Shown piece by piece: positions 8,615 to 29,568 of a stretch of 64,000 nucleotides of DNA (its first letter is position 1; each line of letters begins with the position of its first letter). A model generated the notes under the pieces. The model was not told the DNA's origin. It did not search any database and saw only the letters and a program-made list of their open reading frames with translations. Origin of the DNA: Escherichia phage vB_EcoP_EP32B. The position numbers and the translations under genes are program-made. The stretch is from the sequence record OR544955; one strand, written 5' to 3'.

Positions 8615-9300
<686 letters not shown>

Positions 9301-9301
9301 T

Positions 9302-9360
9302 TTTCACAAAACAGTTTACATAAGGATGATGGTGTGATACTATCATCCTATCAAATAAAC
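9302..9360 (+). promoter_or_regulatory. early promoter in inverted repeat (PeSL-like)
   Basis: TTTTCACAAAACAGTTTAC upstream element and -35 GTTTAC at 9314-9319; inverted repeat GGATGATGG...CTATCATCC spanning a -10-like GATACT. Confidence 0.45.
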
Positions 9361-9440
9361 AACCTCAAGGAAATAAAATGAAAACATATCAAGAATTTAT
9401 ATATGTTATAGTAGTCCTATCAAAACAAGAGGATAATAAA

Positions 9441-9626
9441 ATGAAACGCGCTGAACTGATTCGTAATGTTGCTGTAGTAATTGCTTCAATGGCTTTTAGT
9501 TTTTCGATGTTTGTAGGATTCATTTGTGGACTACTGACAACAACTGAAAACTCTATCTCATTGGTAGTAGCATTTCTAATCGGCTTAATCGCTATCGTTA
9601 TGGATAAAATTGCAAAAGGTGAGTAA
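9441..9626 (+). CDS. small hydrophobic membrane protein (61 aa)
   Basis: track ORF 9378..9626 begins MKTYQEFI (internal-protein targeting-sequence-like) but a PeSL-like fragment lies inside; likely start MKRAELIR after GAGGA. Confidence 0.4.
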   Translation: MKRAELIRNVAVVIASMAFSFSMFVGFICGLLTTTENSISLVVAFLIGLIAIVMDKIAKGE

Positions 9627-9989
9627 ATGAAATATCATGTATATGCAGATTTTGAAGCAAATCCTTCTAAAGACCATGATTGTCGTTTGATACGCAGACC
9701 ATTTGATTCAGCAGCTCAAGCCTGGGCTTGGATTAAATCTAAATCGCCTGGTTATATGTTCTTTGAAGTAGTCGATGACAATGGTACACTGCATCCGGCC
9801 CCTACAGAAACTATTAATTTCCTTCTGTTTGCTGGTTATGACTGTTATCCTCTTGGTGGTATTGACGACCTTGTTGCTACAGGAAAAACTGTTGAGGCTC
9901 TTCGCGAAATTTATAAAAACGCAGAAGAAAATTTTGACTGGTATCATATTGTTGATGCTCATACCTTTGAAATAGTGGAACATTCATGA
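9627..9989 (+). CDS. hypothetical protein (120 aa)
   Basis: ORF abutting upstream gene, compact T4-style packing. Confidence 0.6.
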   Translation: MKYHVYADFEANPSKDHDCRLIRRPFDSAAQAWAWIKSKSPGYMFFEVVDDNGTLHPAPTETINFLLFAGYDCYPLGGIDDLVATGKTVEALREIYKNAEENFDWYHIVDAHTFEIVEHS

Positions 9990-10276
9990 TTCTTTATGCT
10001 AAGGTAAAATCCGTTGAGAATGGATATGAAAGCGACCGGGGTGCAGCTAAAGCACTAGTCGATGACTACGGTATTCTGACTAACTTTGAGGTTGAAAAGG
10101 TTTATATCGACCGTTCATCTTCACAGGTTAAATTACTCTGTGAAGACAATAAATTTAACACAGTTAATTTTGATTTCTTTATTGAAACTGAATCAGGTCC
10201 TCTTGAATATGATATTTTCAAGAATCCTTTGAAATTACGTTGCATTGAATATAATTACATTAATATGGTACGGTGA
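9986..10276 (+). CDS. hypothetical protein (96 aa)
   Basis: ATGA overlap with upstream ORF. Confidence 0.55.
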   Translation: MILYAKVKSVENGYESDRGAAKALVDDYGILTNFEVEKVYIDRSSSQVKLLCEDNKFNTVNFDFFIETESGPLEYDIFKNPLKLRCIEYNYINMVR

Positions 10277-10280
10277 GTAA

Positions 10281-10772
10281 ATGAATATTTGTTTAGGCAG
10301 TACAATTCCTAAGGGTTACGTAATTGATGTCACTACTTGGGAAAATGACGGTGACAACTATAAAACCAAAACATTATTTGGTGTAGAAGAGCATGAGCTC
10401 CAACAGTTTAAATATCTCTTGAAGAAATTTAAGAGTCGTCATTCTAGTACTAAAGCTGAACGTTACTGTGGTAATACACTATTCAGTGATTGCTCGCTTT
10501 TAATCTATGAATACTTGGTTGAAGGACTGTTCTCAGACCAGCTTTATCCAGAATTCATTAAAAAGGTCTTTGATATTGAAGTCGACCTTGGTAATAAATC
10601 TGAAGAAGACGAATCACGTGTATTTGACCTGTTCCAAGGTCTCATTGATATTCTTGGCCATGCTTCTGAATATTATGACTATGATTTCTTGCGTGTAGTT
10701 GAACGTGTTGAATTCGCTTATATTGAAGAAGAAATTGTTTTGCCGACTGTTAAAATGATTGATTTGCTTTAA
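10281..10772 (+). CDS. hypothetical protein (163 aa)
   Basis: ORF with upstream GTGAGTAA-ATG context. Confidence 0.6.
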   Translation: MNICLGSTIPKGYVIDVTTWENDGDNYKTKTLFGVEEHELQQFKYLLKKFKSRHSSTKAERYCGNTLFSDCSLLIYEYLVEGLFSDQLYPEFIKKVFDIEVDLGNKSEEDESRVFDLFQGLIDILGHASEYYDYDFLRVVERVEFAYIEEEIVLPTVKMIDLL

Positions 10773-11029
10773 GAATTATGTGTTATTATTAATTCATACC
10801 CTCTATTACCAAAGGTGCTCTAAAGTGCCTTTCATAATAGAAAGTTATTTAGGCCCTGTAGCTCAATGGTGCAGTAGCTGCTCTGGAAAACCTGTTCCAA
10901 ATTGCAACAGAAGAACGCGAAGAAGTTACATTATGGATTGAAGATAACGCAGGTCTGAATCTCCAGGACGCGATCTCATTATCCCACAATAGTATCACTG
11001 TTCAAGGCTGGGTATCATCTAGTTATTCT

Positions 11030-11080
11030 TGCTAAAACAGTTTACAACAAGATAGGGCTATGTTATAGTAGTCCTATCAA
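11030..11080 (+). promoter_or_regulatory. early promoter in inverted repeat (PeSL-like)
   Basis: AAAACAGTTTAC -35, inverted repeat GATAGG...CCTATC around TGTTATAGT, then AAATGGAG Shine-Dalgarno. Confidence 0.45.
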
Positions 11081-11097
11081 AACAAATGGAGTCCACA

Positions 11098-11337
11098 ATG
11101 ATTTATTACGAAAGTATCGGAACCAAAGTGGTTGGTAAAACCATTACTCGTGAAAAGTTTGCAAAGATATTCGATATGCGTTATAAAAAATCTGAACACA
11201 AAGGCATCCGATTCGAAGATGCGCACTGTACAATTTGCCCTTATAATGAAGACATAAACGGTACAATCGTTCCATTGGTAGAGGCTTCACATGATGACCT
11301 CTGGGATGAATATAATATCGCATGTCGTGAAATTTAA
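11098..11337 (+). CDS. hypothetical protein (79 aa)
   Basis: ORF 11086..11337, start taken at MIYYES after GGAG. Confidence 0.5.
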   Translation: MIYYESIGTKVVGKTITREKFAKIFDMRYKKSEHKGIRFEDAHCTICPYNEDINGTIVPLVEASHDDLWDEYNIACREI

Positions 11338-11365
11338 GTTAATGAATTAATCCGAGGAAAATATT

Positions 11366-12322
11366 ATGATGTTAGTTATTGGTTCTCGTGCACTTCACTA
11401 TCACGGTCTTATTGATTCTAGCGCTATTAAAAATAGTGATTGGGACTTTATTGCGGACCAAGGTTCTTGGAATGCATTCAAAAATCAAATGATGGGTGTA
11501 TATGTTCACCAAGATAACCCTGATGTCCAAGTTTTCAAATGCTTCCATAATGGACGCGAAACTCATTTTGAAGCATATATTGTTCCGGCAATCACTAGTG
11601 TCCGTGAATTAGTCGGTGAACTCACTCCTGAAGATTTCACGTCTTCTTATGACCTTTTAAAATACGCCAAGAAAAATTTGACTAAAGACCGTTTGAACGG
11701 GTTTTACTGGGCAACTCCTGAGATATGTCTTGCAATTAAGATGTCTCATCGTTTCAAGAAAAATAATCCATTCTTTTTAAAGACTATGAACCATATTCAG
11801 TATCTTCGTGGTAAAGGTGTTAAACTGAACGATGAACTTACTGAAATTATGCTGAAACGCCAGAAAGAAACCTTGAACTATGCTCACCCTGTTCTTGACA
11901 CTTCTAAAAGTGCGTTCTTTAAAGATGACATCTATACATATGACCATGATACTATTCACGAAGCTATTGCACTAACAGACCGTCCGGCTTATACATTTTA
12001 CATGAAAGATGGTTCTGAAGTCATGACCTCACGCGAGAAGTTTGAATCACTTCCGGAAATGGTCAAATTGGCCGGTGTATATGAAGAAACATGTGTACTA
12101 GCGTTAGAACGTTCTCAGATTCCTAATGGCTTTGAAATCCATCCTCGTGATAGTTTTATGATGGCATTAGAAAAGGTCTGTACTTCAATCACATCAGGCT
12201 GGTTCCGTGAGTTCGCTTGGGAAAATTATAGCAAAGTAGTAAGTATGTACCAAAGCTTAGGACACGACGATTACGTCAAGCGTTTCAAACAAAACTTTCA
12301 TATGGTAAAACCTTTCAAATAA
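11366..12322 (+). CDS. hypothetical protein with possible Pol-beta-type nucleotidyltransferase N-terminal motif
   Basis: 318 aa; LVIGSRALHYHGLIDSSAIKNSDWDFIAD resembles the GS...DxD nucleotidyltransferase signature. Confidence 0.6.
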   Translation: MMLVIGSRALHYHGLIDSSAIKNSDWDFIADQGSWNAFKNQMMGVYVHQDNPDVQVFKCFHNGRETHFEAYIVPAITSVRELVGELTPEDFTSSYDLLKYAKKNLTKDRLNGFYWATPEICLAIKMSHRFKKNNPFFLKTMNHIQYLRGKGVKLNDELTEIMLKRQKETLNYAHPVLDTSKSAFFKDDIYTYDHDTIHEAIALTDRPAYTFYMKDGSEVMTSREKFESLPEMVKLAGVYEETCVLALERSQIPNGFEIHPRDSFMMALEKVCTSITSGWFREFAWENYSKVVSMYQSLGHDDYVKRFKQNFHMVKPFK

Positions 12323-12372
12323 TTTCACAAAACAGTTTACAAGGTCTGTAGTTGTTGATACTATAGACCTAT
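12323..12372 (+). promoter_or_regulatory. early promoter in inverted repeat (PeSL-like)
   Basis: TTTCACAAAACAGTTTAC, inverted repeat AGGTCTGTAG...CTATAGACCT spanning GATACTATAG. Confidence 0.45.
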
Positions 12373-12402
12373 CAAAACAAATGAGTGAATGGAGATATCA
12401 AA

Positions 12403-12603
12403 ATGACTACTTTGAATAAACGTTTCGGTAAAGCTAAACCTGGTTGTGCAGCAGAACGTCGTTATGTTTTCGCTCAGTTAGAAGATGTAGAGTATCAGAT
12501 TAATCAAGTTCACATTACTGGTATCGAGCCTATGTGTGGCCTTGAAGCTCTTCGTGAAGTTCGTGATGGGTATCGTCGTGACATCGAAGAAATGTCAAAA
12601 TAA
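12403..12603 (+). CDS. hypothetical protein (66 aa)
   Basis: ORF 12385..12603, start at MTTLNKRFG. Confidence 0.5.
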   Translation: MTTLNKRFGKAKPGCAAERRYVFAQLEDVEYQINQVHITGIEPMCGLEALREVRDGYRRDIEEMSK

Positions 12604-12650
12604 GTGTACAAACTGATAGGACTATGTTATAGTAGTAGTCCTATTAAAAC
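12604..12650 (+). promoter_or_regulatory. early promoter in inverted repeat (PeSL-like)
   Basis: GTGTAC -35 variant, inverted repeat ATAGGACTATGTTATAGTAGTAGTCCTAT, then GAGGAG. Confidence 0.4.
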
Positions 12651-12664
12651 ATGAGGAGAATATT

Positions 12665-12970
12665 ATGAAATTAACAGAAACCAATCGAATTGGTCTTTTA
12701 ACAATACTTGCATCACCTTTTTACGCAACTCTTTCTGTTGCAGTATTACAAAAGGCTTACGATATGGATGGTGTTCCTGGTTTTGTATTCTTATCGCCGT
12801 TTTTGCTATTCGTTGGAGCATTGTTATTATATGCCACGACTGGTTTCGACCATAATGTCTGGGTCAATTATAAACGTAAATTGTCCGAAGAAGAACACGC
12901 AGAAGCTCGTAAAAAAGCTATTGAATCTACCAATCTAGAAAATTTCATTAAAGAATGTCGAGGAAAATAA
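12665..12970 (+). CDS. membrane protein (101 aa, two hydrophobic segments)
   Basis: hydrophobic stretches ILASPFYATLSVAVL and FVFLSPFLLFVGALLLY. Confidence 0.6.
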   Translation: MKLTETNRIGLLTILASPFYATLSVAVLQKAYDMDGVPGFVFLSPFLLFVGALLLYATTGFDHNVWVNYKRKLSEEEHAEARKKAIESTNLENFIKECRGK

Positions 12971-12971
12971 T

Positions 12972-13566
12972 ATGAATAGTTCTAAAGTGTTTAATAGTCA
13001 AGCTCGTGCAGTAGGTGGTTTTGCTCATGCGATTAAAAATGACCAGATTAAAAACGAGCCTATGTTCTTTTGTATTTGATTCACGAGTCCACATGCTGAT
13101 GCCTGGTTGGTATCCTGCTATCCCAGGTTATCACCATGATGACGTACCACGCCCGGATATTCCGGTTGGTCAACATTTTATTACTGCAGGACAACCTGAC
13201 TATGACAATCCTCGCTATTTGTCTGAACATATTCTTGGTCTTGTTAACGCTGATGTGTGTCCTACTCATTTTGCAACAGGAACTGCGGAGTTCAGTCAGA
13301 TTCCTGATGGCGAACTTATCTATCGCCAGTGGCACAAAGAAGTCCTCGAAAAAATCGAAAAAGGCGAACTAGAGAAATGGGAAGCTCCAGACCGTACTCT
13401 TCTTCAGTTTGATTGGCAAACATGGCACACTGGTTCTCGTGCAATTAGTAATGGATGGCGTTGGTTCGGACGTGTATCTCGTAATACAGACCGAGTTAAA
13501 AAGATTACCAATGAAATTCGCGTCAATGCCCAAGTTTATCTGGAATTCCCTATGGAAGGCTGGTAA
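12972..13566 (+). pseudogene. hypothetical gene apparently split by a frameshift
   Basis: ATG 12972 with GAGGAAAA Shine-Dalgarno opens a 34-codon ORF that stops about 13076; the 183-codon ORF 13015..13566 continues in the +1 frame across A5 runs. Confidence 0.4.
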
Positions 13567-13925
13567 TGATTAACAAAACATATTGGTCTAATATTGACGA
13601 CGGCAATGAAGGTATTTCGTACTATTCAGTGGATTGGACAGGATGTCCATCCTACTTAGTGAAACGTATTTGCCAAGAATTTAAAATCGACAAACCAGCA
13701 GGTATTATCGTGAACAGATACATTAATGGATATCAACCTATCGATGAAGTAATACGAACAACTCAAGCTGATCTTGAAAAGTTTTTCAATAAGTGCCAAT
13801 GGATAACAGGATGGATTATATTTGTACCGTCGGTATGGTTTTTTAGTACTAAGGTGAGTTCTTTCGGTTTTGTTGATATTATTGCTATCTTATTAGCATC
13901 TGCTATCATAAGTCATCATTATTAA
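13566..13925 (+). CDS. hypothetical protein with C-terminal transmembrane segment (119 aa)
   Basis: ATGA overlap with upstream ORF; hydrophobic C-terminus. Confidence 0.55.
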   Translation: MINKTYWSNIDDGNEGISYYSVDWTGCPSYLVKRICQEFKIDKPAGIIVNRYINGYQPIDEVIRTTQADLEKFFNKCQWITGWIIFVPSVWFFSTKVSSFGFVDIIAILLASAIISHHY

Positions 13926-14018
13926 TCTTGTTAAAAGTAGTTTACAGGAACGTAAAGACAAGATAAAGGCCAAGAATAACGAAGTTGAACGTTTTATTAC
14001 TGAATGCAGGAATTTGAG

Positions 14019-14255
14019 ATGAGTATAGCAATTTACATTAAATCAGAATCATGTGATAGTTATCTGTACACATACGATAAAGATGTGTCAGAAGAAAAAA
14101 TCAAAGACGACCTTAATACGGATCTTGATATGTTCTGTCCTATTGCAGATTACAAACTTGCGGTCTCTAATAGTGAAAGTCCATCTAAAGAAACGCGCAT
14201 TGAAGAATTTATGTCCGAATTAATGGCCAAATCATGGGACCGAGATGATGAGTAA
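14019..14255 (+). CDS. hypothetical acidic protein (78 aa)
   Basis: ORF 14004..14255; start MSIAIY preceded by AGGAA. Confidence 0.5.
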   Translation: MSIAIYIKSESCDSYLYTYDKDVSEEKIKDDLNTDLDMFCPIADYKLAVSNSESPSKETRIEEFMSELMAKSWDRDDE

Positions 14256-14703
14256 GAAAAATAAAGTGAAAGAACTATCAGCCGGTATTATTTTCCTTAC
14301 CGAAGATAAAGAATTATTCATGGGGCGTGTAACTGGTTCTCGTCCTAAAGGTTCTTTAGCTCATCGCTGGGATATTCCTAAAGGACGTGTCGAGCCCGGT
14401 GAATCTCCTATTGAAGCCGCTATTCGCGAATGCGAAGAAGAAACTGGGTTTACACAATATGACCCTGCCTTCCTGAAAGACCTAGGTGAACATCATTACT
14501 CAGACAATAAGAATATTCATCTGTTCCTATATACCATCCCTGTAGAGCACGAGCAATTCAGAAACAGTGCTTGTAATTCCTATCATACATTCCCAGACGG
14601 ACGACAGATTCCTGAATTTGATGCGTTCGCTTTAATTAAACCTTCTCAATGGGAATATGTGATGGGCAAATCATTATATAAGGTGCTCACTACTATCCTA
14701 TAA
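14245..14703 (+). CDS. nudE: Nudix hydrolase (NudE / e.1-like)
   Basis: Nudix box GRVEPGESPIEAAIRECEEETG; located just upstream of gene e as in T4. Confidence 0.85.
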   Translation: MMSKKNKVKELSAGIIFLTEDKELFMGRVTGSRPKGSLAHRWDIPKGRVEPGESPIEAAIRECEEETGFTQYDPAFLKDLGEHHYSDNKNIHLFLYTIPVEHEQFRNSACNSYHTFPDGRQIPEFDAFALIKPSQWEYVMGKSLYKVLTTIL

Positions 14704-14737
14704 GTAATAAATATCTCCTATAAACGTGGGAGGTATT

Positions 14738-15504: not shown

Positions 15505-15505
15505 T

Positions 15506-15558
15506 GTTTACTTCCTCCAAGGACTTTGATACTATACATTCATCAACTACTTGGAGGA
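15506..15558 (+). promoter_or_regulatory. early promoter in inverted repeat (PeSL-like) upstream of denV
   Basis: GTTTAC -35, inverted repeat TCCTCCAAG...CTTGGAGGA whose 3-prime arm contains the Shine-Dalgarno sequence. Confidence 0.5.
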
Positions 15559-15562
15559 AATT

Positions 15563-15976
15563 ATGACTCGTATCAATTTAACACTTGTTTCTGAACTGAC
15601 TGACCAACATCTTATGGCTGAGTATCGTGAATTACCACGCGTATTTGGTGCAGTCCGTAAACATGTTCAAAACGGTAAACGTGTAAAGGATTTTAAAATC
15701 TCTCCAACATTTATCTTAGGCACAGGTCACGTAACATTCTTTTACGACAAACTTGAATTTTTACGTTTACGACAAATCGAGCTAATCGCCGAATGCTTGA
15801 AACGTGGTTTCAAAATCAAGGACACGACTGTCCAGGATATTTCCGACATCCCTGCAGAATTTCGTAATAATTATGTCCCATCCGAAGCGTCCATTGCGAT
15901 AAGTCAAGCACGCTTAGATGAAAAAATTGCTCAACGTCCGACTTGGTACAAATACTATGGTAAATCAATTTACTAA
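15563..15976 (+). CDS. denV: endonuclease V (pyrimidine dimer DNA glycosylase), denV
   Basis: [35 protein letters not shown], near identical to T4 endo V as recalled. Confidence 0.95.
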
Positions 15977-16068
15977 GGAACAAAATGAAAACTCCAACCT
16001 GTAATAATGTCGAGCCCAAGTGCGGTAATGGGTTGCCACGGAATGGCCCAACATAAAAGAGAAACTAA

Positions 16069-16590: not shown

Positions 16591-16600
16591 TTGGAATGCA

Positions 16601-17502: not shown

Positions 17503-17890
17503 AGACATCAAAGGCTATAAGCCGCATACCGACGATAAAATCGGTAAAGTGAACGCTATTAAAGATGCAGAAGTTCGAGGAAAAATACTAATGGCTCAAA
17601 TCCTATCAGGCTTTGGAACTCATTATGAAGCATCTAGACGCATAACTGAAAGCAATCCTTTTGGCCTTGTTCCGAAGCACAAGAAAATTCAAAGCCTTGA
17701 TGACTTTGAGAACCGCCTATGGGCCCTCTTTAATGAGTACAAGGCATATCTGAAAGAAGACGCTGACGATTGTCTTGAAGAAGATGAGATTGCGTATTAC
17801 GAACAACGCCTTGAACAGCTCAAGAACTTCCATCAGGTTCGTGACGAAGTATCTAAAGCAGTTAAAAAGTTAATTCCTTTCAAAGAGTAG
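17492..17890 (+). CDS. hypothetical protein (132 aa)
   Basis: start at [12 protein letters not shown] overlapping upstream stop (ATGTCGATTGA); frame of track ORF 17324..17890. Confidence 0.5.
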
Positions 17891-17939
17891 TTTACTTCTC
17901 CTCTAGTTGTGTTACTATAGACATGTCAACTAGAGGAGA
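17890..17939 (+). promoter_or_regulatory. early promoter in inverted repeat (PeSL-like) upstream of regB
   Basis: GTTTAC, arms TCTCCTCTAGTTG / CAACTAGAGGAGA flanking GTTACTATAG. Confidence 0.5.
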
Positions 17940-17946
17940 AATCAAA

Positions 17947-18405
17947 ATGACTATCAATTCAGACGTTTTTATCCGCCGTAATAAACTCCGTCGAATCTTT
18001 GAAACGGAGTTCCGCAAAATAAATGCCGGTATAAAAGATGCTGCAAAGTCTCTTGGACTACCAGGCTTTCATATCAAGTATTCTCAACATCTCTTAGATC
18101 GTGCCATCCAGAGAGAAATAGATGAGAATTACGTTTTTGAATTATTTCATAAAGTAAAAAATCATGTTAAAGAAGTTGCAGAATTTTTATCAATGCCGGC
18201 ACGTCCAGATGTTGATGAAGATTTTGTCGAAGGTGTCGAGTATCGTCCAGGCCGTTTAGAAATAACTGATGGAAATCTTTGGTTAGGACTTACAGTCTGT
18301 CGCGAAAATCCAGCATTCAAAATGAAGACTCTTCAATGCAGAATGGCTATTATTAACAGTAAACGACTACCAGGAAAAGCTTCTAAAGCAGTGATTAAAA
18401 TCTAG
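17947..18405 (+). CDS. regB: endoribonuclease RegB
   Basis: MTINSDVFIRRNKLRRIFETEF...NSKRLPGKASKAVIKI, matches recalled T4 RegB. Confidence 0.9.
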   Translation: MTINSDVFIRRNKLRRIFETEFRKINAGIKDAAKSLGLPGFHIKYSQHLLDRAIQREIDENYVFELFHKVKNHVKEVAEFLSMPARPDVDEDFVEGVEYRPGRLEITDGNLWLGLTVCRENPAFKMKTLQCRMAIINSKRLPGKASKAVIKI

Positions 18406-19760: not shown

Positions 19761-19969
19761 ATATACATTATCCACATCCATATGACCCAAAGAATAAGGC
19801 AGTAATTATTCGTCAATGGGAACGCATTTGCCGTACTAAATGCCCAATTAATAGTCCACATGATGTAGATAAAGACTATATTGGAACATTCGTTGAATAT
19901 ACCTTTATTGATAAGAAAGGTCGTAAACAACATGTAGAAGAATATTGCTTAAAGGTTACATGGTTATGA
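19757..19969 (+). CDS. hypothetical protein (70 aa)
   Basis: ORF 19742..19969, start at MNIHYPHPYD. Confidence 0.45.
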   Translation: MNIHYPHPYDPKNKAVIIRQWERICRTKCPINSPHDVDKDYIGTFVEYTFIDKKGRKQHVEEYCLKVTWL

Positions 19970-20496
19970 GTCTTACTGCCGCCCATAACTATAAAGAACG
20001 TGGCATGGGTGTATTAGTTCTTAAACCGGCTATTGATACTCGCGATTCAAAAGGTGAAATAGTCTCTCGTATTGGTATTCGTCAGGACGCCAATATAATT
20101 ACAAAAGACATGGATATCTTTGAATTCTATAAATGGGCTGCAGCACAAAAGGATATTCATTGTGTATTTGTTGACGAAGCTCAGTTCTTAACTACTGAAA
20201 AGGTGTATCAACTTAGTCGTATTGTTGACGTATACAATGTGCCGGTAATGGCATATGGACTACGAACAGATTTTAAAGGTAATCTATTTGAAGGTTCTCA
20301 AGCATTAATGGCTATTGCCGATAAGCTTGTTGAACTTAAAGGTGTCTGTCATTGCGGTAAAAAGGCCACAATGGTAGCTAGAGTCACGGAAGACGGACTT
20401 CCAATTACAGATGGCAGTCAAATTGAAATTGGTGATACTGATAGATATGTGTCATTATGCCGGAAGCATTGGAATGATTTGACAGGGTTGTTATAA
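19960..20496 (+). CDS. tk: thymidine kinase homolog lacking the N-terminal P-loop (probable remnant)
   Basis: MVMSLTAAHNYKERGMGVLVLKPAIDTRD... aligns with TK1-family Tk from just after the GKS Walker A; in-frame stop 19924-19926 upstream. Confidence 0.7.
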   Translation: MVMSLTAAHNYKERGMGVLVLKPAIDTRDSKGEIVSRIGIRQDANIITKDMDIFEFYKWAAAQKDIHCVFVDEAQFLTTEKVYQLSRIVDVYNVPVMAYGLRTDFKGNLFEGSQALMAIADKLVELKGVCHCGKKATMVARVTEDGLPITDGSQIEIGDTDRYVSLCRKHWNDLTGLL

Positions 20497-21051: not shown

Positions 21052-21058
21052 TTTACTA

Positions 21059-21085
21059 GCCCCTTCCTTACGGTTGGGGCTTTTT
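21059..21085 (+). terminator. rho-independent terminator after rI
   Basis: GCCCC-TTCCTTACGGTT-GGGGC stem-loop followed by TTTTT. Confidence 0.6.
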
Positions 21086-21096: not shown

Positions 21097-21146
21097 GTTT
21101 ACTTCTCCTCAGGTTGTGTTATAGTAGACCTTACTTACTAGAGGAG
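21097..21146 (+). promoter_or_regulatory. early promoter in inverted repeat (PeSL-like)
   Basis: GTTTAC, arms CTCCTC / GAGGAG around GTTATAGTAG. Confidence 0.45.
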
Positions 21147-21152
21147 AACGTT

Positions 21153-21332
21153 ATGTCACGTAAAGAAAAAATTTCTAAGTTGATGTTTTTGATTGAAGAG
21201 TATGCTAATGCGGTGTCTGATTGGGAAAATGCTCATGGGTGCGAAGATGGAGACATCGACATTAACAGAGCTATGAAAAAGATGGCTGATACTCACACCG
21301 AATTGCAAATGTATGTTAACGAGATTATGTGA
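21153..21332 (+). CDS. hypothetical protein (59 aa)
   Basis: ORF 21084..21332, start MSRKEKISKL after the promoter hairpin. Confidence 0.5.
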   Translation: MSRKEKISKLMFLIEEYANAVSDWENAHGCEDGDIDINRAMKKMADTHTELQMYVNEIM

Positions 21333-21339: not shown

Positions 21340-21546
21340 ATGCTTTACGATTATACTGGAAAATCTGAAGACGGTGTACTTGAACTTTTACCTGAAAGCG
21401 CTGAAGACGATGATATGGTGGTGATGTTTTGTAAAAATGGCCCTGGGGATAAGGGATGGATTTATCTTCGCCAAGAAAATGACTTAATTGTTTTGGACCC
21501 TAAACAAGTTGAAGAACTTTATCAACATTTAAAACACAATCGGTAG
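21340..21546 (+). CDS. hypothetical acidic protein (68 aa)
   Basis: ATG preceded by GAGGAC. Confidence 0.5.
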   Translation: MLYDYTGKSEDGVLELLPESAEDDDMVVMFCKNGPGDKGWIYLRQENDLIVLDPKQVEELYQHLKHNR

Positions 21547-21590
21547 TTTACGTCTTGGTAGGACTATGATATAGTAATCCTACCAAAACA
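21546..21590 (+). promoter_or_regulatory. early promoter in inverted repeat (PeSL-like)
   Basis: GTTTAC, inverted repeat TTGGTAGGA...TCCTACCAA around TGATATAGT, then AAATGGAG. Confidence 0.45.
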
Positions 21591-21603
21591 AATGGAGAAC
21601 AAA

Positions 21604-22422: not shown

Positions 22423-22431
22423 GGAATTATT

Positions 22432-22905: not shown

Positions 22906-23891
22906 TGAAAACAATTATGAAAGGCTACTTTGGTAGCCACCTTTATGGAACGTCTACTCCTGAATCTGACGTCGATTTTAAAGAAATTTATGTCCCTCAT
23001 GCTCGTGATATCTTGACCGGTAACGTTAAAGAACACATGAGCAAGAACACGAATAACACATCTTCTAAGAACACAAAAGACGACGTGGACCATGAGTTGT
23101 ATAGTCTCAAATATTTCTTTAAACTAGCTGCGGATGGTGAAACCGTCGCATTAGATATGCTTCACACTCCACCAAGTTTAGTAGTTAAATCTGATTTGCC
23201 TGATGTATGGAAGTATATTCAAGATAACAGGTCTCGTTTCTATACCACTAACATGAAATCTTATTTAGGGTATGTCCGTAAGCAAGCTTCTAAATATGGT
23301 GTCAAGGGTTCTCGACTGGCTGTTCTTCGTCAAGCCCTTAAACGTTCTAATGAATGGGGACAATACTTTGATAATGGTGCAGTAATTCGTTTATCACATA
23401 TGAAGAATGTTCTGCCTGTAGGTGAATTTGCTTCGTGGGTTGAAACTGAAAACGAGAAAACAGGTAAGCAAACATTCTATAATCTGTTAGACCGTAAATT
23501 CCAAGACACATTAACTAATAAAGAGTTCAATGCCATCCTGGTTAAACTGGAAGAGAACTATGGTGAACGTGCTCGTAAGGCAGAAGCTAACGAAGGTATT
23601 GACTGGAAAGCATTGAGTCATGCATGTCGTGGTGGACTTCAATTATTAGAAATTTACAAAACAGGCGATCTGGTTTACCCACTTCAGGATGCTCCATTTA
23701 TTCTCGATGTTAAGCTTGGTAAACATACGTTTAAAACTGTACAAGAATTCCTAGAAGATATCGTTGACCAAGTTGAACATGCGTCAGAACAAGCTGCCAA
23801 GAACGGTATGCAACAAAAAGTAGATATGAGTTTCTGGGATGACTTCCTTGAACAAGTCTATCTCGAAAATCATAATTCTTACTATAAATAA
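22902..23891 (+). CDS. putative Pol-beta-type nucleotidyltransferase-fold protein
   Basis: N-terminus MKGYFGSHLYGTSTPESDVDFKEIYV fits the GS-x(n)-DxD minimal nucleotidyltransferase signature; 329 aa. Confidence 0.6.
   Translation: MMKTIMKGYFGSHLYGTSTPESDVDFKEIYVPHARDILTGNVKEHMSKNTNNTSSKNTKDDVDHELYSLKYFFKLAADGETVALDMLHTPPSLVVKSDLPDVWKYIQDNRSRFYTTNMKSYLGYVRKQASKYGVKGSRLAVLRQALKRSNEWGQYFDNGAVIRLSHMKNVLPVGEFASWVETENEKTGKQTFYNLLDRKFQDTLTNKEFNAILVKLEENYGERARKAEANEGIDWKALSHACRGGLQLLEIYKTGDLVYPLQDAPFILDVKLGKHTFKTVQEFLEDIVDQVEHASEQAAKNGMQQKVDMSFWDDFLEQVYLENHNSYYK
23884..23891 (+). promoter_or_regulatory. late promoter TATAAATA
   Basis: exact TATAAATA about 32 bp before ATG 23923. Confidence 0.4.
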
Positions 23892-23922
23892 GTAGATAAA
23901 TAACCATTAACTTGAGGTAAAT

Positions 23923-24204
23923 ATGAAAAAATTAGTAATTGGTTTATTCGCAGTAATGATGGCATTCTCTGTTGGTGCTACCACGGGTGCTGCTGGCGGT
24001 AGTGCAGGAGCTGGTGGTAACCAGTCTTCTGGGCCTTCTAATGGTTCGGTAAATGCATCACATTCTCAGGGTATTGAGAACATTAGATCAAGCTATATTA
24101 ATAGCACGGCCGGACAAGCAACTGAAGCATGGTCAAAGGGCCGAGTAGTTACTCGCTCCGTATTCTGTGATATGCCTAATTATGTTGCTAAGTGCGATAA
24201 GTAA
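23923..24204 (+). CDS. secreted Gly/Ser-rich protein (93 aa)
   Basis: signal peptide MKKLVIGLFAVMMAFSVGA, low-complexity Gly-rich region, two Cys near C-terminus. Confidence 0.6.
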   Translation: MKKLVIGLFAVMMAFSVGATTGAAGGSAGAGGNQSSGPSNGSVNASHSQGIENIRSSYINSTAGQATEAWSKGRVVTRSVFCDMPNYVAKCDK

Positions 24205-24207
24205 ATG

Positions 24208-24232
24208 TGGGGACCTTCGGGTCCCTTTAGGG
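24208..24232 (+). terminator. UUCG-tetraloop hairpin terminator
   Basis: GGGGACC-TTCG-GGTCCC followed by TTT. Confidence 0.55.
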
Positions 24233-24256
24233 GGTCAAAATATTTTTAAAAAGTAG

Positions 24257-24296
24257 TGTACATGCTTTTAGGATATGTTATTATAGACCTATCGAA
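24257..24296 (+). promoter_or_regulatory. early promoter (PeSL-like)
   Basis: GTGTAC -35 variant, -10-like TTATTATAGACCTATC. Confidence 0.4.
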
Positions 24297-24322
24297 ACGA
24301 AATGAGTAAATTGGAGAATAAA

Positions 24323-25303
24323 ATGTTCAACGTTCAAATCAAAAAAGGTATCTATCGTAATAACGAAATCTCTGGTTCTTATGTTGCCACAAAGACCTGG
24401 TTCCCGGCAAAGCTTAATCCTGAATGTTCCCACTTAGGTGATGGTAAAATTTTCGTTATGATTGATGGTTCTGAACGTGGAGTATGGGTCTTCAAATCAG
24501 ACATCGTAATGGAAGGAGTTGAGACATCACCGGTTGCAGTTGTTGAAAGCACTGAAGATATGAAAACTCGTATCAACAAACGCTTTAAAGTAATGAACAT
24601 GATGACGAATGGCATTATCGATGGTAAAATTCGTTCACTCATTATTTCAGGTGCAGCTGGTATTGGTAAGACGTATTCTCTGGATAAAGCACTTAATAAC
24701 GCTAATGATAATGGTTTCATCAAATACAAAAGCATTAATGGTAAAATCTCCGGTATTGGCCTTTACGAACAACTTTGGCTCAACCGTGATGCAGACAGCG
24801 TTCTCTTAATCGACGACGTTTACGTATTCTCGGATATGGACATCTTGAACCTTCTTAAAGCAGCATTAGATACTGGAGATAAACGCAAAGTTTGCTGGAG
24901 CACGGCGTCATCTTATCTCGATGATAAGGGTATTGATAAAGAATTTGAGTTTGAAGGTACTATCGTTTTCATTACAAACGTTGATATCGATAAAGAGTTA
25001 GAACGCGGTTCGAAACTTGCTCCGCACCTTCAAGCTTTAGTATCTCGTTCAGTGTATCTCGACCTTGGAGTACACTCTAATGAAGAGATTATGGTTCGAG
25101 TTGAAGATGTAATATTATCTACTGACATGATGCAGAAACGTGGTCTGACGGATGCAGAAACGTATAAAGCATTGTCCTGGATGAAGGCTAACGTATCTCG
25201 TCTTCGCAATGTATCATTACGTACGGCTCTTTATGTAGCAGATTTTATTTCAACTGATAAAGATGGTTGGGAGGAAATCTCCGAAGTAACTTTACTGAAA
25301 TAA
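24323..25303 (+). CDS. P-loop ATPase with N-terminal extra domain
   Basis: Walker A GAAGIGKT, Walker B VLLIDDV; ORF 24302..25303 with start MFNVQ after GGAGAATAAA. Confidence 0.65.
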   Translation: MFNVQIKKGIYRNNEISGSYVATKTWFPAKLNPECSHLGDGKIFVMIDGSERGVWVFKSDIVMEGVETSPVAVVESTEDMKTRINKRFKVMNMMTNGIIDGKIRSLIISGAAGIGKTYSLDKALNNANDNGFIKYKSINGKISGIGLYEQLWLNRDADSVLLIDDVYVFSDMDILNLLKAALDTGDKRKVCWSTASSYLDDKGIDKEFEFEGTIVFITNVDIDKELERGSKLAPHLQALVSRSVYLDLGVHSNEEIMVRVEDVILSTDMMQKRGLTDAETYKALSWMKANVSRLRNVSLRTALYVADFISTDKDGWEEISEVTLLK

Positions 25304-25441
25304 GCTTATAGGAAGTTCTGAGGTAACAAAAGCCATAAAGATGAATAATCATATGGCTTACCTCAAAGAAGGACACCAGGAACCTACTGAGGGCATAGAA
25401 ATATTTAAAAATAATGTTGTACAAATCAAAGAGGCTATGTT

Positions 25442-25729
25442 ATGGATTTTATGCAAAAAATTAAAGCCGCAGTCGAACTGTATGCTCATCGTATGGTTAG
25501 TTCTACAATGCAATATAGCGAGGAGGTTCGCCAGGACTCTTCCTTGAAAGGAAAAACTAAAGCCTTAATTACCTTAGACCGTTTGCAAAAGAATGTCATA
25601 GAGATGCTCCAGTACGACAAGGGTGTATATAAGAAAGAACAGGAAGAGAAACTTAAATCTGAAAAATTACAAAAAATCCCGAAGTCGGTTTGGTTCAGTG
25701 GAAAAAATACCGAAAAAAGTTTCTTTTAG
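25442..25729 (+). CDS. hypothetical protein (95 aa)
   Basis: ATG preceded by AAAGAGG; overlapping ORF 25341..25547 judged less likely. Confidence 0.45.
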   Translation: MDFMQKIKAAVELYAHRMVSSTMQYSEEVRQDSSLKGKTKALITLDRLQKNVIEMLQYDKGVYKKEQEEKLKSEKLQKIPKSVWFSGKNTEKSFF

Positions 25730-25731
25730 TT

Positions 25732-25780
25732 GTTTACAAGGTCTATGTTTATGTTATTATAGACCTATCAACTACTGGAG
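25732..25780 (+). promoter_or_regulatory. early promoter in inverted repeat (PeSL-like)
   Basis: GTTTAC, inverted repeat AGGTCTAT...ATAGACCT around GTTATTATAG, then ACTGGAGG. Confidence 0.45.
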
Positions 25781-25787
25781 GTAAAAC

Positions 25788-26315
25788 ATGAACGCTAAAG
25801 ATATTTTCAACCTGGTAAATTATAACGACGGTAAATTTAAATCCGAAGCACAAAGCAAGTTCTTTAATGACGTTGCTTATGGTAACGAGATTACTGTGGA
25901 CGGAGGTCAGATTTTCAAATCTCGCTGGAATTGGATTGTTATCATCGATTCAGTTGGAATTGTGGAAGTCTACAAAAACACTAACAAAAAACGTACATTA
26001 TTCTGGTCTCGTGAAACTAACGAGCAGTACAAAAAGGATAAAGCATCTCGTTTATCCAAAGTAACCCAGGAAGATATCGAGTTTATCAAGAAAGATATCG
26101 AGATGTACGAAAATTTAATCGCTGAAGACCAGGCAGTACTCGATAAGTTTGATGAAATTAAAGCTTCTCGTGAAATCCCTGACTTCATGAAAGAAACAGT
26201 AAACGAACGATACGCTCTCACTTCAGAACGTATTGCAAACTATACAAAACAGAAATCAGAACGTATTAGTACTCTTCGGAAATTTGAAGAACGTTTAAAG
26301 ACGGTTCACGCATAA
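25788..26315 (+). CDS. hypothetical protein (175 aa)
   Basis: ORF after promoter hairpin. Confidence 0.6.
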   Translation: MNAKDIFNLVNYNDGKFKSEAQSKFFNDVAYGNEITVDGGQIFKSRWNWIVIIDSVGIVEVYKNTNKKRTLFWSRETNEQYKKDKASRLSKVTQEDIEFIKKDIEMYENLIAEDQAVLDKFDEIKASREIPDFMKETVNERYALTSERIANYTKQKSERISTLRKFEERLKTVHA

Positions 26316-26377
26316 ACGCTTTACCCAAGGACGGGTTATAATGGTTTTGAGTTCCAATTCAATCTGAGGAAATAGTT

Positions 26378-27373
26378 ATGAGCATTACATCTGATGCTGT
26401 AAAACATGAAATTAACGGTTTATGTGCTTCACAGATTAAAGTGTGGTTTAAAGACCATAACGATCGCAGAGCACTTAATTATGAGCAAATTGCTATCCAA
26501 GTTCATCAATTACTGACTAGTAAATTTGATTTTCATATGCCGTCTGAAATCTATACTAATCTACCGCGAGCGCTTATTAAAGCGTGTAAAGGTTACGGAA
26601 AATCAATGGCTGATGGAATCTTCAGCGCGCTGAATAAACTTAACGTTCTGTCGATGATTAACTCTAACAACATCCTGCGTAATCTAGGACGTACTGATTT
26701 GTTCGGTCGTGAACAGTGTAAAATGCCTTTGAAATGGATTGTTGCTCATCTTAACGAGAACCAAACACGTTTTATGGCCGTATCAGCACGCTTACAAATG
26801 GGCCTAGATCGTCAGATGAACTTTAAAACTCATCCACGTTATTCAGGTTCAACAGACTTTTATAAATGTGAGCTTCAAAAGGTCGGTGGCAAAACCGTCT
26901 TAGTAGTTCGTGTAACGTTTGAAGGACGACGTCAAGGATATTTTGACCTAATCGGCTCTGGTCTTAAACATTGTGGATTTATTGACGAAGTTGATATCAA
27001 GCGAGACGGCATTGGATACCGTATTGGATATGTTTGTACTCTTAAAGAAGAGATTTCAGGACCAGCACCAGGACTAAAAGACGTTAGATATAAAGACGAG
27101 CTCATTGAAGAAATAAAAGAAGTTGAATATGATATCAACCAAGAAGATGCTCTTAAAGACCTTATTGATGAACTAAACCAAGACGTTATTCCGGTTCAGA
27201 AATTTGAATCAAAACACGCTGAGCAAATCAAATACTTTGAAGCTTTGATTAACGAACTTAATGTAACTATTCAACAAACTGATGATGAAATCTCACGATT
27301 AGCAGGCTTAAACGGTAAAAATAAAACAGAACGAGCTAATCTTATTCAGGTAGTAAAACTTCTTAAGGAATGA
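26378..27373 (+). CDS. hypothetical protein with C-terminal coiled coil (331 aa)
   Basis: preceded by GCTTTAC / GTTATAATG promoter-like pair and GAGG. Confidence 0.6.
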   Translation: MSITSDAVKHEINGLCASQIKVWFKDHNDRRALNYEQIAIQVHQLLTSKFDFHMPSEIYTNLPRALIKACKGYGKSMADGIFSALNKLNVLSMINSNNILRNLGRTDLFGREQCKMPLKWIVAHLNENQTRFMAVSARLQMGLDRQMNFKTHPRYSGSTDFYKCELQKVGGKTVLVVRVTFEGRRQGYFDLIGSGLKHCGFIDEVDIKRDGIGYRIGYVCTLKEEISGPAPGLKDVRYKDELIEEIKEVEYDINQEDALKDLIDELNQDVIPVQKFESKHAEQIKYFEALINELNVTIQQTDDEISRLAGLNGKNKTERANLIQVVKLLKE

Positions 27374-27402
27374 TGTACAACCAAGGATGGTTGGAGTATA
27401 AT
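27371..27402 (+). promoter_or_regulatory. early promoter; first copy of a 27-bp direct repeat
   Basis: TACAACCAAGGATGGTTGGAGTATAAT at 27376-27402, -10 TATAAT. Confidence 0.45.
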
Positions 27403-27428
27403 AAATTTTTCAACATGAGGAATATAAA

Positions 27429-28250
27429 ATGGCTTTTATTACACGTAGAGAACTTATCAAAGAATTTACCTCGAACGCATATACTCCAGGACCTAATCCT
27501 ATCCGTATGCCTGTAAAGACTCCTGAAGAGATTGAGGAAATCTGTTCATATTATGGGATTACTTCTCGTAAGTTTACTCAATTTGAATGCGTTACTAACA
27601 CACCCGTTAAAGAGTTCATTAAAAATGGTGAGTTCAGCCGTTTATTAGCCAAACAGAAACTTCGTAATTTTTGTATTGGCGGTGAAGGACAATATTTCGC
27701 TAAGCAGTTTCGGAATAACCTTAACAATCTGATGGCCATTGCTTCTCGTATTCGTCCTCAAGCAATTAATATGAAACATTTGAAATATACTTACGATAAG
27801 TTGGAAATCATGGTTATCAGTGAGAATGAGTTCACTCTCACGTATAAACCTAAGAATGATAACGTTGCTCGTGTATTCCACCAAGCGTTGGAAGTGTTAG
27901 GTGATAATATTCACCAGATTAAAGCAATTTATTCTCGTGAGCTTAATATTATCAACCCTATCAAGAATAAGGGCCATATCGCTATCCAGGCTCGTGTATC
28001 TATTGGTAAAAAGGTTCCTGCGCCATGGTGGCACAAAGACTCCGAATATTATCAAAATCTTAAAAAGGAAAATGCACTAATGACCTTCTTCCGGCCGAAG
28101 ATTACCATTACAATCAAATCAAGGCCACTATGGACCAACTGTCTGTTGAACTTGACAAAGCACAAGCTAAGCTTCGTGATGCTCAAAGTGTTGTAACGAA
28201 TCTCCAGTTGCAGTACTCTAAACTTTTTAACGCAATGAATGCATTAAAAT
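27429..28250 (+). CDS. hypothetical protein, apparently frameshifted near its 3-prime end
   Basis: 255-codon ORF 27429..28196 ends in an implausible hydrophobic tail while the +2 frame encodes a coiled-coil C-terminus MDQLSVELDKAQAKLRDAQSVV...NALKS ending about 28250. Confidence 0.5.
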
Positions 28251-28257
28251 CATAAAT

Positions 28258-28289
28258 CAGTTTACAACCAAGGATGGTTGGAGTATAAT
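28258..28289 (+). promoter_or_regulatory. early promoter; second copy of the 27-bp direct repeat
   Basis: GTTTAC plus identical TACAACCAAGGATGGTTGGAGTATAAT at 28263-28289. Confidence 0.45.
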
Positions 28290-28318
28290 GAAATCTATCT
28301 TAACGAGAGGAAAATATT

Positions 28319-29263
28319 ATGACACGTTCACATTACGTTGATTATTTTGCAGGTCTTATCGCTAACGTTCATGCCCAACGTGCTTCTGGTGCACTAGGAT
28401 TTGATGTTCCACACCGAGATGTAGTAAGTGGCATTCTTCGAGATTTTGGTACATACACAGGTCAAGAAAATCATATCTGTAAAGATACTCAGAATGCGTA
28501 TTCTCATTCATTAGGGACGCTGCTTCAATGGTTTAAACGTTCTCGTTTATTATCTTCTACTGTGGCTCGTGATAACATTAAAAACTTTATGAAGCCGAGC
28601 TTTATTAAATCTGTGACATCTAAAACCGATTTGGTTGAATTCACTATTGTTAATGATGTTAAAAAGGCTCATTTGGCTGATTGGTTCTCTACCATTCCTG
28701 AAACTAAATTTGCTGATAAATTTGCTTGTGAATTCAATAACCAAGTGAATATGCTTTTTAAACATTCACGTAAATTATTCACTGGCGGCGATGGCCGTAC
28801 AAATAAAGTTCATGTTAAAGATTGGGTTACTGCAGTATTCAAACCAACTGGTAATGGTAACGCATCGTTATCAATTGATATCCAGGTTCCTTATTATTAC
28901 TCACGTAATCTCGGTACCATGAAAGCCGAAGAAATTAATAAGCGCAACAAAACCATTCGTTCTCTGTCTTATAAACTTCGCATGATGTTACAGACTATGG
29001 ATGTTGTTGAAATGTTCGACGAAACCGAAGATAACGGTTCAATGTTATTCAGTTCTCGAATTAAAATTAAACTGAAGAACCCTAATGTGTTTAAGCCTAT
29101 TAAAGAACCTAAAGCAGAAAAGGTCGATATCATGGCCGAAGAACGCGAATATCTCAAATCTCGTCTGAAAGAAGTCGAAGCCCAGATTGCAGAACAAACT
29201 AAATCGTTAAAAGCTCTGAATGCGAAAGCGGACGGTTTACGAAATGCCATTGAGGTGTTATAA
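28319..29263 (+). CDS. hypothetical protein with C-terminal coiled coil (314 aa)
   Basis: ORF with GAGAGG Shine-Dalgarno. Confidence 0.6.
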   Translation: MTRSHYVDYFAGLIANVHAQRASGALGFDVPHRDVVSGILRDFGTYTGQENHICKDTQNAYSHSLGTLLQWFKRSRLLSSTVARDNIKNFMKPSFIKSVTSKTDLVEFTIVNDVKKAHLADWFSTIPETKFADKFACEFNNQVNMLFKHSRKLFTGGDGRTNKVHVKDWVTAVFKPTGNGNASLSIDIQVPYYYSRNLGTMKAEEINKRNKTIRSLSYKLRMMLQTMDVVEMFDETEDNGSMLFSSRIKIKLKNPNVFKPIKEPKAEKVDIMAEEREYLKSRLKEVEAQIAEQTKSLKALNAKADGLRNAIEVL

Positions 29264-29568
29264 TGAACCTACGTCTTCTAGAGGATATTGATATGAGCAC
29301 TAATCATGGCTTGGTTAAGTTTATTGACGATAGTTCAAAGATTGAATTTGTTCAGCGAGATAAAATCCACGGTGAAGAAGAGTTCGTTCCTCCGGCATGG
29401 AACGAAATAATGAAAATGGTTGAACGACGTGAAAATGCTGCCAAATCGGCAGCAAAACATCCATGTCCGGAATGTGGAACTATCCAAGTCCAACTGGTTA
29501 ACTGGACCACTGATAACTTGAAATTGAAATGCCGTAAATGCTTCCACAAATTTGAGAGAACATTATAA
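29263..29568 (+). CDS. zinc-ribbon protein (101 aa)
   Basis: CPECG...CRKC four-cysteine motif. Confidence 0.55.
   Translation: MNLRLLEDIDMSTNHGLVKFIDDSSKIEFVQRDKIHGEEEFVPPAWNEIMKMVERRENAAKSAAKHPCPECGTIQVQLVNWTTDNLKLKCRKCFHKFERTL

Follow-up and report, generated by a model that had tools for sequence, protein, structure and literature searches.

We examined the inverted repeats associated with early promoters in a 64,000-nucleotide stretch of DNA from Escherichia phage vB_EcoP_EP32B (sequence record OR544955; the whole stretch is referred to here as the window), mainly between positions 9300 and 29300. The best explanation, to which we give a probability of roughly two in three, is that a hyperplastic region of a Mosigvirus has here early promoters of the T4 type that carry hairpins for read-through RNA, with one group of hairpins (class B) gating the Shine-Dalgarno sequence (SD) and another (class A) being intercistronic. 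Judged from the sequences, the stem-loops are not of one kind; about half of the helices are SD-masking and kept by compensatory change across genera, which is best seen at regB. The part of most value is the SD-masking helix, conserved and covarying, that regB, denV and a few small genes have inside their early promoters.

The 9300-29300 region matches Mosigvirus (RB69-like T-even phages) at 96-98% identity, with E. coli O157 typing phage 3 as the top match. Its early genes are on the + strand in the given orientation and follow the T4 order (57B, ipI, tRNA region, e.x, nudE, e, ip, denV, vs.x, regB, vs, tk, rI, mobD.x, nrdC.x). The region from 57B to nrdC.x is one of the classical hyperplastic regions. 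A second promoter block was identified after gene 41, ahead of small open reading frames (ORFs). By synteny with T4 and by the place of this second block, the promoters have the hyperplastic location, flanking small ORFs, that is typical of promoter early stem-loops (PeSLs). The intergenic gaps are about 55-60 nt long and are occupied by the promoter and the leader.

Throughout the window, the motif GTTTAC-N18-TANNNT had 15 matches against 1.03 expected and GTTTAC-N17-TANNNT had 7 against 0.84, giving 22 matches against approximately 1.9 expected for the two spacings combined, 20 of them on the + strand. Nearly all were located directly 5′ of an SD and an ATG, with a leader to the ATG of 20-32 nt and, in one case, 43 nt. 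The consensus derived from the 22 sites was ..ttt.a.aaA..aGTTTACA ... TaTGtTAtnAT a.aCcTatcaa, and an extended -10 (TGn) was present in 17. The 30 nt upstream of the -35 held on average 11.5 A and 9.4 T, which corresponds to an A/T-rich tract resembling an UP element, the exceptions being 21097, 29235 and 57274. A generic sigma-70 scan showed no enrichment (77 matches against 67 expected), so a motif specific for T4 was required. The identity of these putative promoters is well supported, as the T4-specific motif is enriched, strand-polar and intergenic. Site 17890 aligns with the sole promoter-like motif upstream of the orthologous T4 regB; activity straight after infection with the unmodified host RNA polymerase is suggested by this orthology. 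We found no genome-wide map of T4 transcription start sites in the literature.

The first-pass annotation of this DNA had placed at least 15 such sites between 9300 and 29300. The promoter array proved to be real; however, we counted 13 early-type sites there (9314, 11040, 12335, 12604, 15506, 17890, 21097, 21546, 24256, 25732, 27373, 28260 and 29235), a number that takes in the -35 variants GTGTAC and ATGTAC. The 13 do not include site 13940, which is degenerate, or the half-element at 9401-9443. The annotation had also allowed GCTTTAC as an early -35, which we could not uphold, since 10764 and 26317, the two sites that were probably counted as such, look like middle promoters with a MotA box instead. 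The first motif (10764-10789, TTGCTTTA-N12-TATTAT) lies ahead of a tRNA remnant and the second (26317-26342, CGCTTTA-N13-TATAAT) ahead of the ORF at 26378. The recurrence of the elements between 57270 and 59075, also claimed there, was confirmed with 5 sites, 3 of which have a repeat (57274, 57708 and 59016), and with the SD in the 3′ arm at 57274 and 57708.

To identify helices, we paired the spacer of each site, which separates the -35 from the -10, with the bases lying between the -10 and the ATG, and took the best helix. Of the 13 sites in the region, nine (9314, 11040, 12335, 12604, 15506, 17890, 21097, 21546 and 25732) had a repeat of 6-14 bp spanning the -10. Thus, the architecture first described, an inverted repeat of 6-13 bp with the -10 in its loop, held for these nine, but the repeat was weak or absent at 24256 and 29235 and confined to the spacer at 27373 and 28260. 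In the whole window, stems of at least 6 bp spanning the -10 were found in 12 of the 22 sites, and two further sites had a repeat inside the spacer. As a control, the spacer of one site was paired with the downstream segment of another. Native stems in the 22 sites averaged 6.7 bp and cross-paired ones 4.9 bp, with duplex energies of -11.0 and -7.7 kcal/mol, respectively (permutation p<2e-4). We then pooled 129 unique sites from at least nine genera, comprising the window, T4, five Mosigvirus relatives, 42 regB loci from IMG/VR and 7 other Tevenvirinae loci (five in further genera, one from a second Tequatrovirus and one with no genus in its record). In this pool, perfect stems of at least 8 bp were present in 43% of native, 5.7% of cross-paired and 0.6% of shuffled arms. 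As native complementarity far exceeds cross-paired complementarity, the pairing belongs to each site and not to the consensus.

Two main geometries were recognized. In class A (9314, 11040, 12335, 12604, 21546, 25732 and 59016), the 5′ arm is in the spacer, and the 3′ arm begins within the final bases of the -10, or immediately beyond them, and stops close to the predicted start; in the six such sites of the region it covers about -8 to +3, right after the -10 or overlapping it. The loop of 6-13 nt holds the -10, and the SD is 8-15 nt beyond and unpaired. In class B (15506 at denV, 17890 at regB, 21097, 57708 and 57274), an anti-SD run (TTCTCCTC...) directly after GTTTAC forms the 5′ arm, the SD with an extension forms the 3′ arm, and the loop is 17-28 nt long. 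A third geometry, with the hairpin CAACC-AAGGAT-GGTTG wholly in the spacer, was found in two paralogous promoters (27380-27396 and 28267-28283) and fits the PeSL subclass "between -35 and -10". Among the 129 pooled sites, 40 were class A, 38 were class B and 51 had no helix. The arms at 21546 differ from those of the sites with GATAGGA/TCCTATC by compensatory change. It had been proposed that the 3′ arm of the repeats contains the SD; this is true for 15506, 17890 and 21097, that is 3 of the 13, but not for the remaining sites, so that there are two geometries rather than one.

The strongest case is regB. The 28 unique regB promoter-to-ATG sequences that we collected across genera form 19 distinct helices. 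The Mosigvirus helix is TTCTCCTCTAGTTG/CAACTAGAGGAGAA, that of T4 is UUUUCCUCUUGACUG/CAGUUAAGAGGAGAA with two G.U pairs, and other variants are ATCTCCTTTTAGT/ACTAAAAGGAGAT, ATCCTCATTTG/CAAATGAGGAT and TCTCCTGTAAGT/ACTTACAGGAGA. In a count of 29 regB stems, 21 overlap the SD (8-15 bp), six belong to class A and another two are weak. The mean helix length was 9.2 bp for native arms, compared with 6.1 bp when arms were paired across lineages (p<5e-5). As a plain MAFFT alignment of the regB leaders misaligned the arms, whose helices have unequal lengths, we relied on stem finding in each sequence, cross-pairing tests and an alignment to a covariance model. In the latter, 12 of the 14 pairs vary on both sides, 88.5% of cells are paired (74% after shuffling and about 50% after sliding the arms), and the covariation score is 0.354 against 0.135, with none of 500 shuffles reaching 0.354. 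Conservation of an SD-masking helix inside the regB early promoter, across genera and through compensatory change, thus appears strongly supported.

At 17923, in the loop of the regB hairpin, the window has A where the relatives have C (GACATGT for GACCTGT). The change gives rise to an ATG in frame with regB, 24 nt 5′ of its start and with no SD of its own.

The composition of the stems points to RNA. When G.U and A.C were scored equally during helix extension, and helices with a score of at least 6 were counted, 28 G.U and 9 A.C pairs were found inside stems, or about 22 and 7 with orthologous duplicates taken out by hand. This excess of G.U over A.C favours pairing of sense-strand RNA, and a cruciform does not fit it. 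We then folded the read-through RNA, beginning 60 nt 5′ of the -35, and the site's own transcript, beginning 7 nt after the -10. The predicted probability of an unpaired SD in read-through and own transcripts, respectively, was 0.00 and 0.47 at 15506, 0.00 and 0.35 at 17890, 0.00 and 0.56 at 21097, and 0.00 and 0.75 at 57708. At 12604, 27373 and 34628, the SD was masked in the read-through folds through other pairings. On the other hand, 15 of the 22 folded sites showed no clear difference in the SD between the two transcripts. The minimum-free-energy z of the read-through folds was -3.8 for regB and -3.1 for denV, and the short regB leader was unstructured. The first-pass proposal that read-through transcripts sequester the ribosome-binding site is therefore sustained for a subset, by the folding (5 of the 13 region sites and 7 of the 22 window sites) and by the covariation of regB across genera, but was over-generalised, with the SD lying in the helix at 3 of the 13.

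These observations would be brought together as follows. The promoters would be of the sigma-70 type, with an UP element, a -35 GTTTAC, an extended -10 TGn and a -10 TAnnnT. Because the intergenic gaps are short and filled by promoter and leader, the structure of the read-through RNA would be written into the sole unconstrained segments, with the 5′ arm in the 17-18 nt spacer and the 3′ arm in what follows the -10. Only RNA begun upstream would form the hairpin, as the promoter's own transcript, predicted from the geometry to start about 7 nt after the -10, would have no 5′ arm. In class B, where the 3′ arm is the GGAG/GAGG of the SD, the read-through RNA would be translationally silent. It would probably also be shielded from RegB, which cuts unstructured GGAG, while the own early transcript would be open. 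RNA structure is known to protect GGAG from RegB (PMC3014915), and a masked read-through SD should thus be both untranslated and uncut. With the SD masked in read-through RNA and open in the own transcript, protein synthesis would be tied to the brief activity of the own early promoter. We infer these effects on translation and on RegB from predicted structures. The class A helix would be wholly upstream of the predicted start, hence present only in read-through RNA and leaving the SD free. It is most likely an intercistronic hairpin, for which attenuation, protection of RNA ends and reduced ribosome loading on the leader are candidate roles.

Tentatively, and giving it somewhat less than an even chance, we propose that an "own-promoter-only" gate is conserved across Tevenvirinae. 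At regB, denV and some small early genes, only the own early transcript would be translated and cleavable by RegB, and read-through RNA, whether early, middle or late, would be silent and RegB-resistant. If true, PeSL stem-loops would gain a post-transcriptional function that is absent from the PeSL papers and the 2010 T4 reviews that we consulted, and regB a third layer of control beside promoter shut-off and self-cleavage. It would also help to explain how the synthesis of some early proteins stops despite continued read-through transcription, and how RegB comes to leave uncut many of the GGAG sites that lie in longer transcripts.

Several points weigh against the explanation by read-through hairpins. 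No helix was found at 4 of the 13 region sites and 51 of the 129 pooled ones, so that it is no obligatory component of these promoters. The roles of class A are candidates only, its helices having no T-run and none being flagged as terminator-like. The predicted start positions come from the geometry of the -10, and a terminator-like hairpin already stands 5′ of 21097, which may keep read-through low at that site. The excess of G.U amounts to a few dozen events that are partly not phylogenetically independent. The covariance-model alignment is a fit to the structure, and some of its members are antisense matches or paralogous promoters; we therefore gave more weight to the direct results for each sequence. 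In addition, the helices may already have been described in older literature (Miller 2003, Repoila 1994, Piesiniene 2004), and we do not claim the gate as new.

Complementarity could also arise without selection on pairing, as a by-product of the promoter consensus (TATG before the -10 and ATAG/CCTATC after it) and of a pyrimidine run that resembles an anti-SD. Conserved promoter positions do form the innermost 3-4 bp of the class A helices, and cross-paired arms reach at least 6 bp in 30%; however, the drop of stems of at least 8 bp from 43% to 5.7% upon cross-pairing and the 19 different regB helices, with changes on both sides, make this highly improbable, and we rejected chance or consensus as the source upon these cross-pairing and covariation controls. 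The authors of the PeSL papers see the stem-loops as terminators or attenuators that stop or damp upstream transcription and make each small gene an insulated unit. We consider this unlikely for the helices described here, although one RB49/phi1 PeSL stem-loop cut lacZ read-through about as much as rrnB T1 (Arbiol 2010, PMC2839356), class A helices are placed exactly between cistrons, and terminator-like hairpins are paired with promoters at 21058/21097, 24209/24256, 57251/57274 and 62482/62516. The RB49 stem that was tested is a G/C-rich polyG/polyC helix, unlike the present ones, and the class B covariation runs exactly over the SD, which termination does not need. The reading of the -10-spanning helices as intrinsic terminators was rejected on their sequence, as they are AT-rich, 6-14 bp long and devoid of a T-run, with none among the region's 19 terminator-like sites. 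Not every such repeat should be annotated as a terminator.

The repeats might instead act at the DNA level, as cruciform or hairpin targets or as protein-binding palindromes that direct recombination or modulate promoter opening. Cassette indels among the relatives do start and finish in the promoter/stem-loop elements, and a stem-specific binding protein has been speculated upon, with one crossover mapped inside a loop (Arbiol 2010, PMC2839356). Yet the arms vary from site to site with complementarity kept by compensatory change, leaving no common palindrome for one protein, and G.U over A.C is a strand-specific signature, whereas a cruciform needs both strands paired. Moreover, the repeats at the indel ends are 40-55 nt long and comprise the promoter, the leader and the N-terminal codons of internal-protein (IP) genes rather than stems alone, and the eight private deletions of the window (described below) have no junction homology and did not use the elements. 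A DNA-level signal is, in our opinion, quite improbable, and a common palindrome or protein operator was rejected, since the arms differ between sites and between lineages. The covarying SD-masking helices point to RNA-level control of which transcript is translated, rather than to a termination or recombination signal. The elements of the window are collected in Table 1.

Table 1 Early promoters, hairpins and associated elements in the window (arms are given as 5′ arm / 3′ arm)
Element	Position (strand)	Arms and remarks
Early promoter, class A	9314..9349 (+)	-35 9314-9319, -10 9338-9343; AGGATGAT 9323-9330 / ATCATCCT 9342-9349; loop 11
Half-element	9401..9443 (+)	-10, leader, SD and ATG of a cassette joined to the opening 24 nt of an internal-protein gene (MKTYQEF...); junction of a deletion, as compared with all relatives
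Early promoter, class A	11040..11078 (+)	GATAGGGCTA 11051-11060 / TAGTCCTATC 11069-11078; one G.U; loop 8
Early promoter, class A	12335..12370 (+)	AGGTCTGT 12342-12349 / ATAGACCT 12363-12370; one G.U
Early promoter (GTGTAC), class A	12604..12646 (+)	TGATAGGACTA 12614-12624 / TAGTCCTATTA 12636-12646; RNA hairpin -16.8 kcal/mol, z -3.0
Gene e (lysozyme) SD-sequestering hairpin, comparator	14710..14737 (+)	AAUAUCUCCUAU-AAAC-GUGGGAGGUAUU; T4 precedent in PMC3014915
denV early promoter, class B	15506..15565 (+)	TTCCTCCAAG 15512-15521 / CTTGGAGGAA 15550-15559 (= SD); ATG 15563
regB early promoter, class B	17890..17949 (+)	TTCTCCTCTAGTTG 17896-17909 / CAACTAGAGGAGAA 17927-17940 (= SD); ATG 17947; read-through RNA -26 kcal/mol, z -3.8
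Terminator-like GC hairpin with T-run	21058..21085 (+)	AGCCCC...GGGGCTTTTT; directly 5′ of promoter 21097 (terminator, then promoter)
Early promoter, class B	21097..21155 (+)	TTCTCCTC(AGGT) 21103-21114 / (ACTA)GAGGAGAA 21137-21148 (= SD); ATG 21153
Early promoter, class A	21546..21589 (+)	TTGGTAGGA / TCCTACCAA within 21552-21566 / 21575-21589; loop 8
Terminator-like hairpin, A/T-rich tract and early promoter	24209..24284 (+)	GGGGACCTTCGGGTCCCTTT 24209-24228; GTGTAC 24256; -10 24279-24284; no -10-spanning repeat
Early promoter, class A	25732..25766 (+)	AGGTCTAT 25739-25746 / ATAGACCT 25759-25766
Early-type promoter (ATGTAC variant)	27373..27402 (+)	5-bp spacer-only repeat CAACC-AAGGAT-GGTTG; SD masked in the read-through fold (0.01 vs 0.61)
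Early promoter	28260..28289 (+)	Near-duplicate of 27373; 5-bp repeat in the spacer only
Early-type promoter	29235..29264 (+)	Inside the upstream ORF, at its 3′ end; no significant repeat
Second block, five early promoters	57274..59050 (+)	57274, 57708, 58275, 58705, 59016
Repeats in the second block		57708 class B, 14 bp, TTCTCCAGTAGTTG / CAACTACTGGAGAA; 57274 class B, 7-9 bp; 59016 class A; 58275 and 58705 none

Recombination may be a side effect of these elements, as common promoter/leader cassettes of 40-60 nt would offer homology patches to the T4 recombination system, by which small gene cassettes could be gained, lost and swapped as in the PeSL model. Among the five Mosigvirus relatives, several cassette-sized indels showed overlapping alignment ends of 40-55 nt, which are terminal direct repeats, at the IP locus on the ipI side, at the IP locus after denV and at one small e.x gene. 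The repeats are made up of promoter, leader and the opening codons that encode the internal-protein targeting sequence MKTYQEF. Within the window, the elements have exact words of up to 29 nt in common (25732/57708), or 27 nt (27373/28260). A nearly identical promoter/hairpin/SD cassette of 58-61 nt was identified at T4 denV (L002, 17354-17414, - strand) and at both denV and regB of phage VR5 (L009, 1927-1984 and 4036-4094). As the same cassette stands at denV and regB, whole regulatory cassettes are common to unrelated genes. The cassette repeats at the IP loci agree with the PeSL model and with the observations on these loci credited to Repoila 1994. Elements of the T-even IP loci were reportedly described in that work, as relayed by a citing paper.

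Compared with all five relatives, the window itself showed eight differences, at 9402, 10870, 13070, 13913, 15992, 17577, 19972 and 28076. Each of the eight is a deletion whose junction shows essentially no homology, and none (0/8) is an exchange from promoter to promoter. The missing segments measure 262-616 nt at 9402, 4.9-6.0 kb at 10870, about 93 nt at 13070, about 35 nt at 13913, 0.46-1.1 kb at 15992-16034, 145-169 nt at 17577, 423-626 nt at 19972 and 117-133 nt at 28076. A promoter-mediated origin of these deletions was rejected, their junctions being without homology. The elements had been proposed as recombination hotspots, which is supported in part, by the 40-55 nt repeats at the IP loci and one small gene of the relatives, but not by any of the eight differences specific to the window.

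Several of the window deletions cut into genes, and such a density of illegitimate deletions is unusual for a genome with 97-98% identity to its relatives. The ORF at 9378-9626 is chimeric, with the first 24 nt of an internal-protein gene in frame with the -10, leader, SD and gene of the next cassette; it has an internal SD and an ATG at 9441. The deletion of 4.9-6 kb cuts a tRNA-Met (window 10850-10870), where the relatives have tRNA-Met and tRNA-Arg and one of them also tRNA-Asn. Rfam and ARAGORN searches of the 64-kb window detected no RNA family and no tRNA. The thymidine kinase ORF (19945-20496, with a TTG start) has apparently lost its 5′ end at the junction 19972, where the tk.x genes and approximately the first 57 nt of tk, according to the annotation of O157 typing phage 3, are gone; the phage may be tk-deficient.

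PeSL stem-loops were described as lying mostly in the gap that separates the -35 from the -10 or overlapping the -10 (Arbiol 2010, PMC2839356), and those of T4 and PST as TTTACW-N17-TAYWAT with AGNA-loop-TCNT stems (Comeau 2014, PMC4122927). Calling the present elements PeSL-like, as was done at first, is fair, since they include -10-overlapping stem-loops as in the former study and since AGNA-loop-TCNT resembles the AGGNCT...AGNCCT stems found here. As in RB49/phi1 (PMC2839356), an AT-rich upstream tract is followed by an early promoter, a stem-loop and then an SD and ATG, and the elements are dense in hyperplastic regions, flank small ORFs and were proposed as the homology for cassette shuffling. 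In contrast, RB49 has canonical TTGACA/TATAAT promoters and G/C-rich (GGGG...CCCC) terminating stems, whereas the present elements have a GTTTAC -35 and AT-rich stems without a T-run, and a subset pairs with the SD. Neither of the two PeSL papers (PMC2839356, PMC4122927) mentions translation, ribosomes or sequestration. The PST/T4 PeSLs (PMC4122927) are closer, having the same consensus, weaker and more AT-rich stems and a tie to variable internal-protein loci, and in our search of the pooled sites the T4 ipI, ipII, ipIII and denV promoters carried the same helices. They differ in that a figure legend puts the PST stems "just upstream of the promoter", while the stems here span the -10, and in that the papers cover Tequatrovirus and Schizo-T-evens, while the window is from Mosigvirus. 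The array is thus mostly ordinary for a T-even phage, of the known PeSL kind in a genus that the PeSL papers did not treat, and PeSL-type promoter/stem-loop cassettes also populate Mosigvirus hyperplastic regions.

The promoters also resemble the T4 early "uber" promoters (Hinton 2010, PMC2988021), as both have an A/T tract like an UP element, the -35, TGn and -10, and further conserved positions. Inverted repeats are not described in that review, where "stem-loop" is used only for terminators. The structures masking the ribosome-binding site that the 2010 T4 reviews describe are those of e, soc, 49, I-TevI and homing-endonuclease genes, and the control of regB is described there without a hairpin. 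In T4 e, soc, 49, I-TevI and segB, the SD-masking helix forms only on transcripts started upstream, with a late or middle promoter inside the structure (PMC3014915, PMC2988022). Similarly, the SD is predicted to be paired in upstream-started RNA at 15506, 17890, 21097 and 57708, although not at most sites; the own transcript is predicted to have no 5′ strand of the helix, and the gene e example is itself present in the window. On the other hand, the embedded promoter is early-type here and not of the late class (TATAAATA). A late or middle promoter delays translation in T4, whereas an early one would limit it to the first minutes of infection. The class B sites would therefore work like the T4 promoter-in-hairpin gates, as an early-promoter variant of them and not as strict members.

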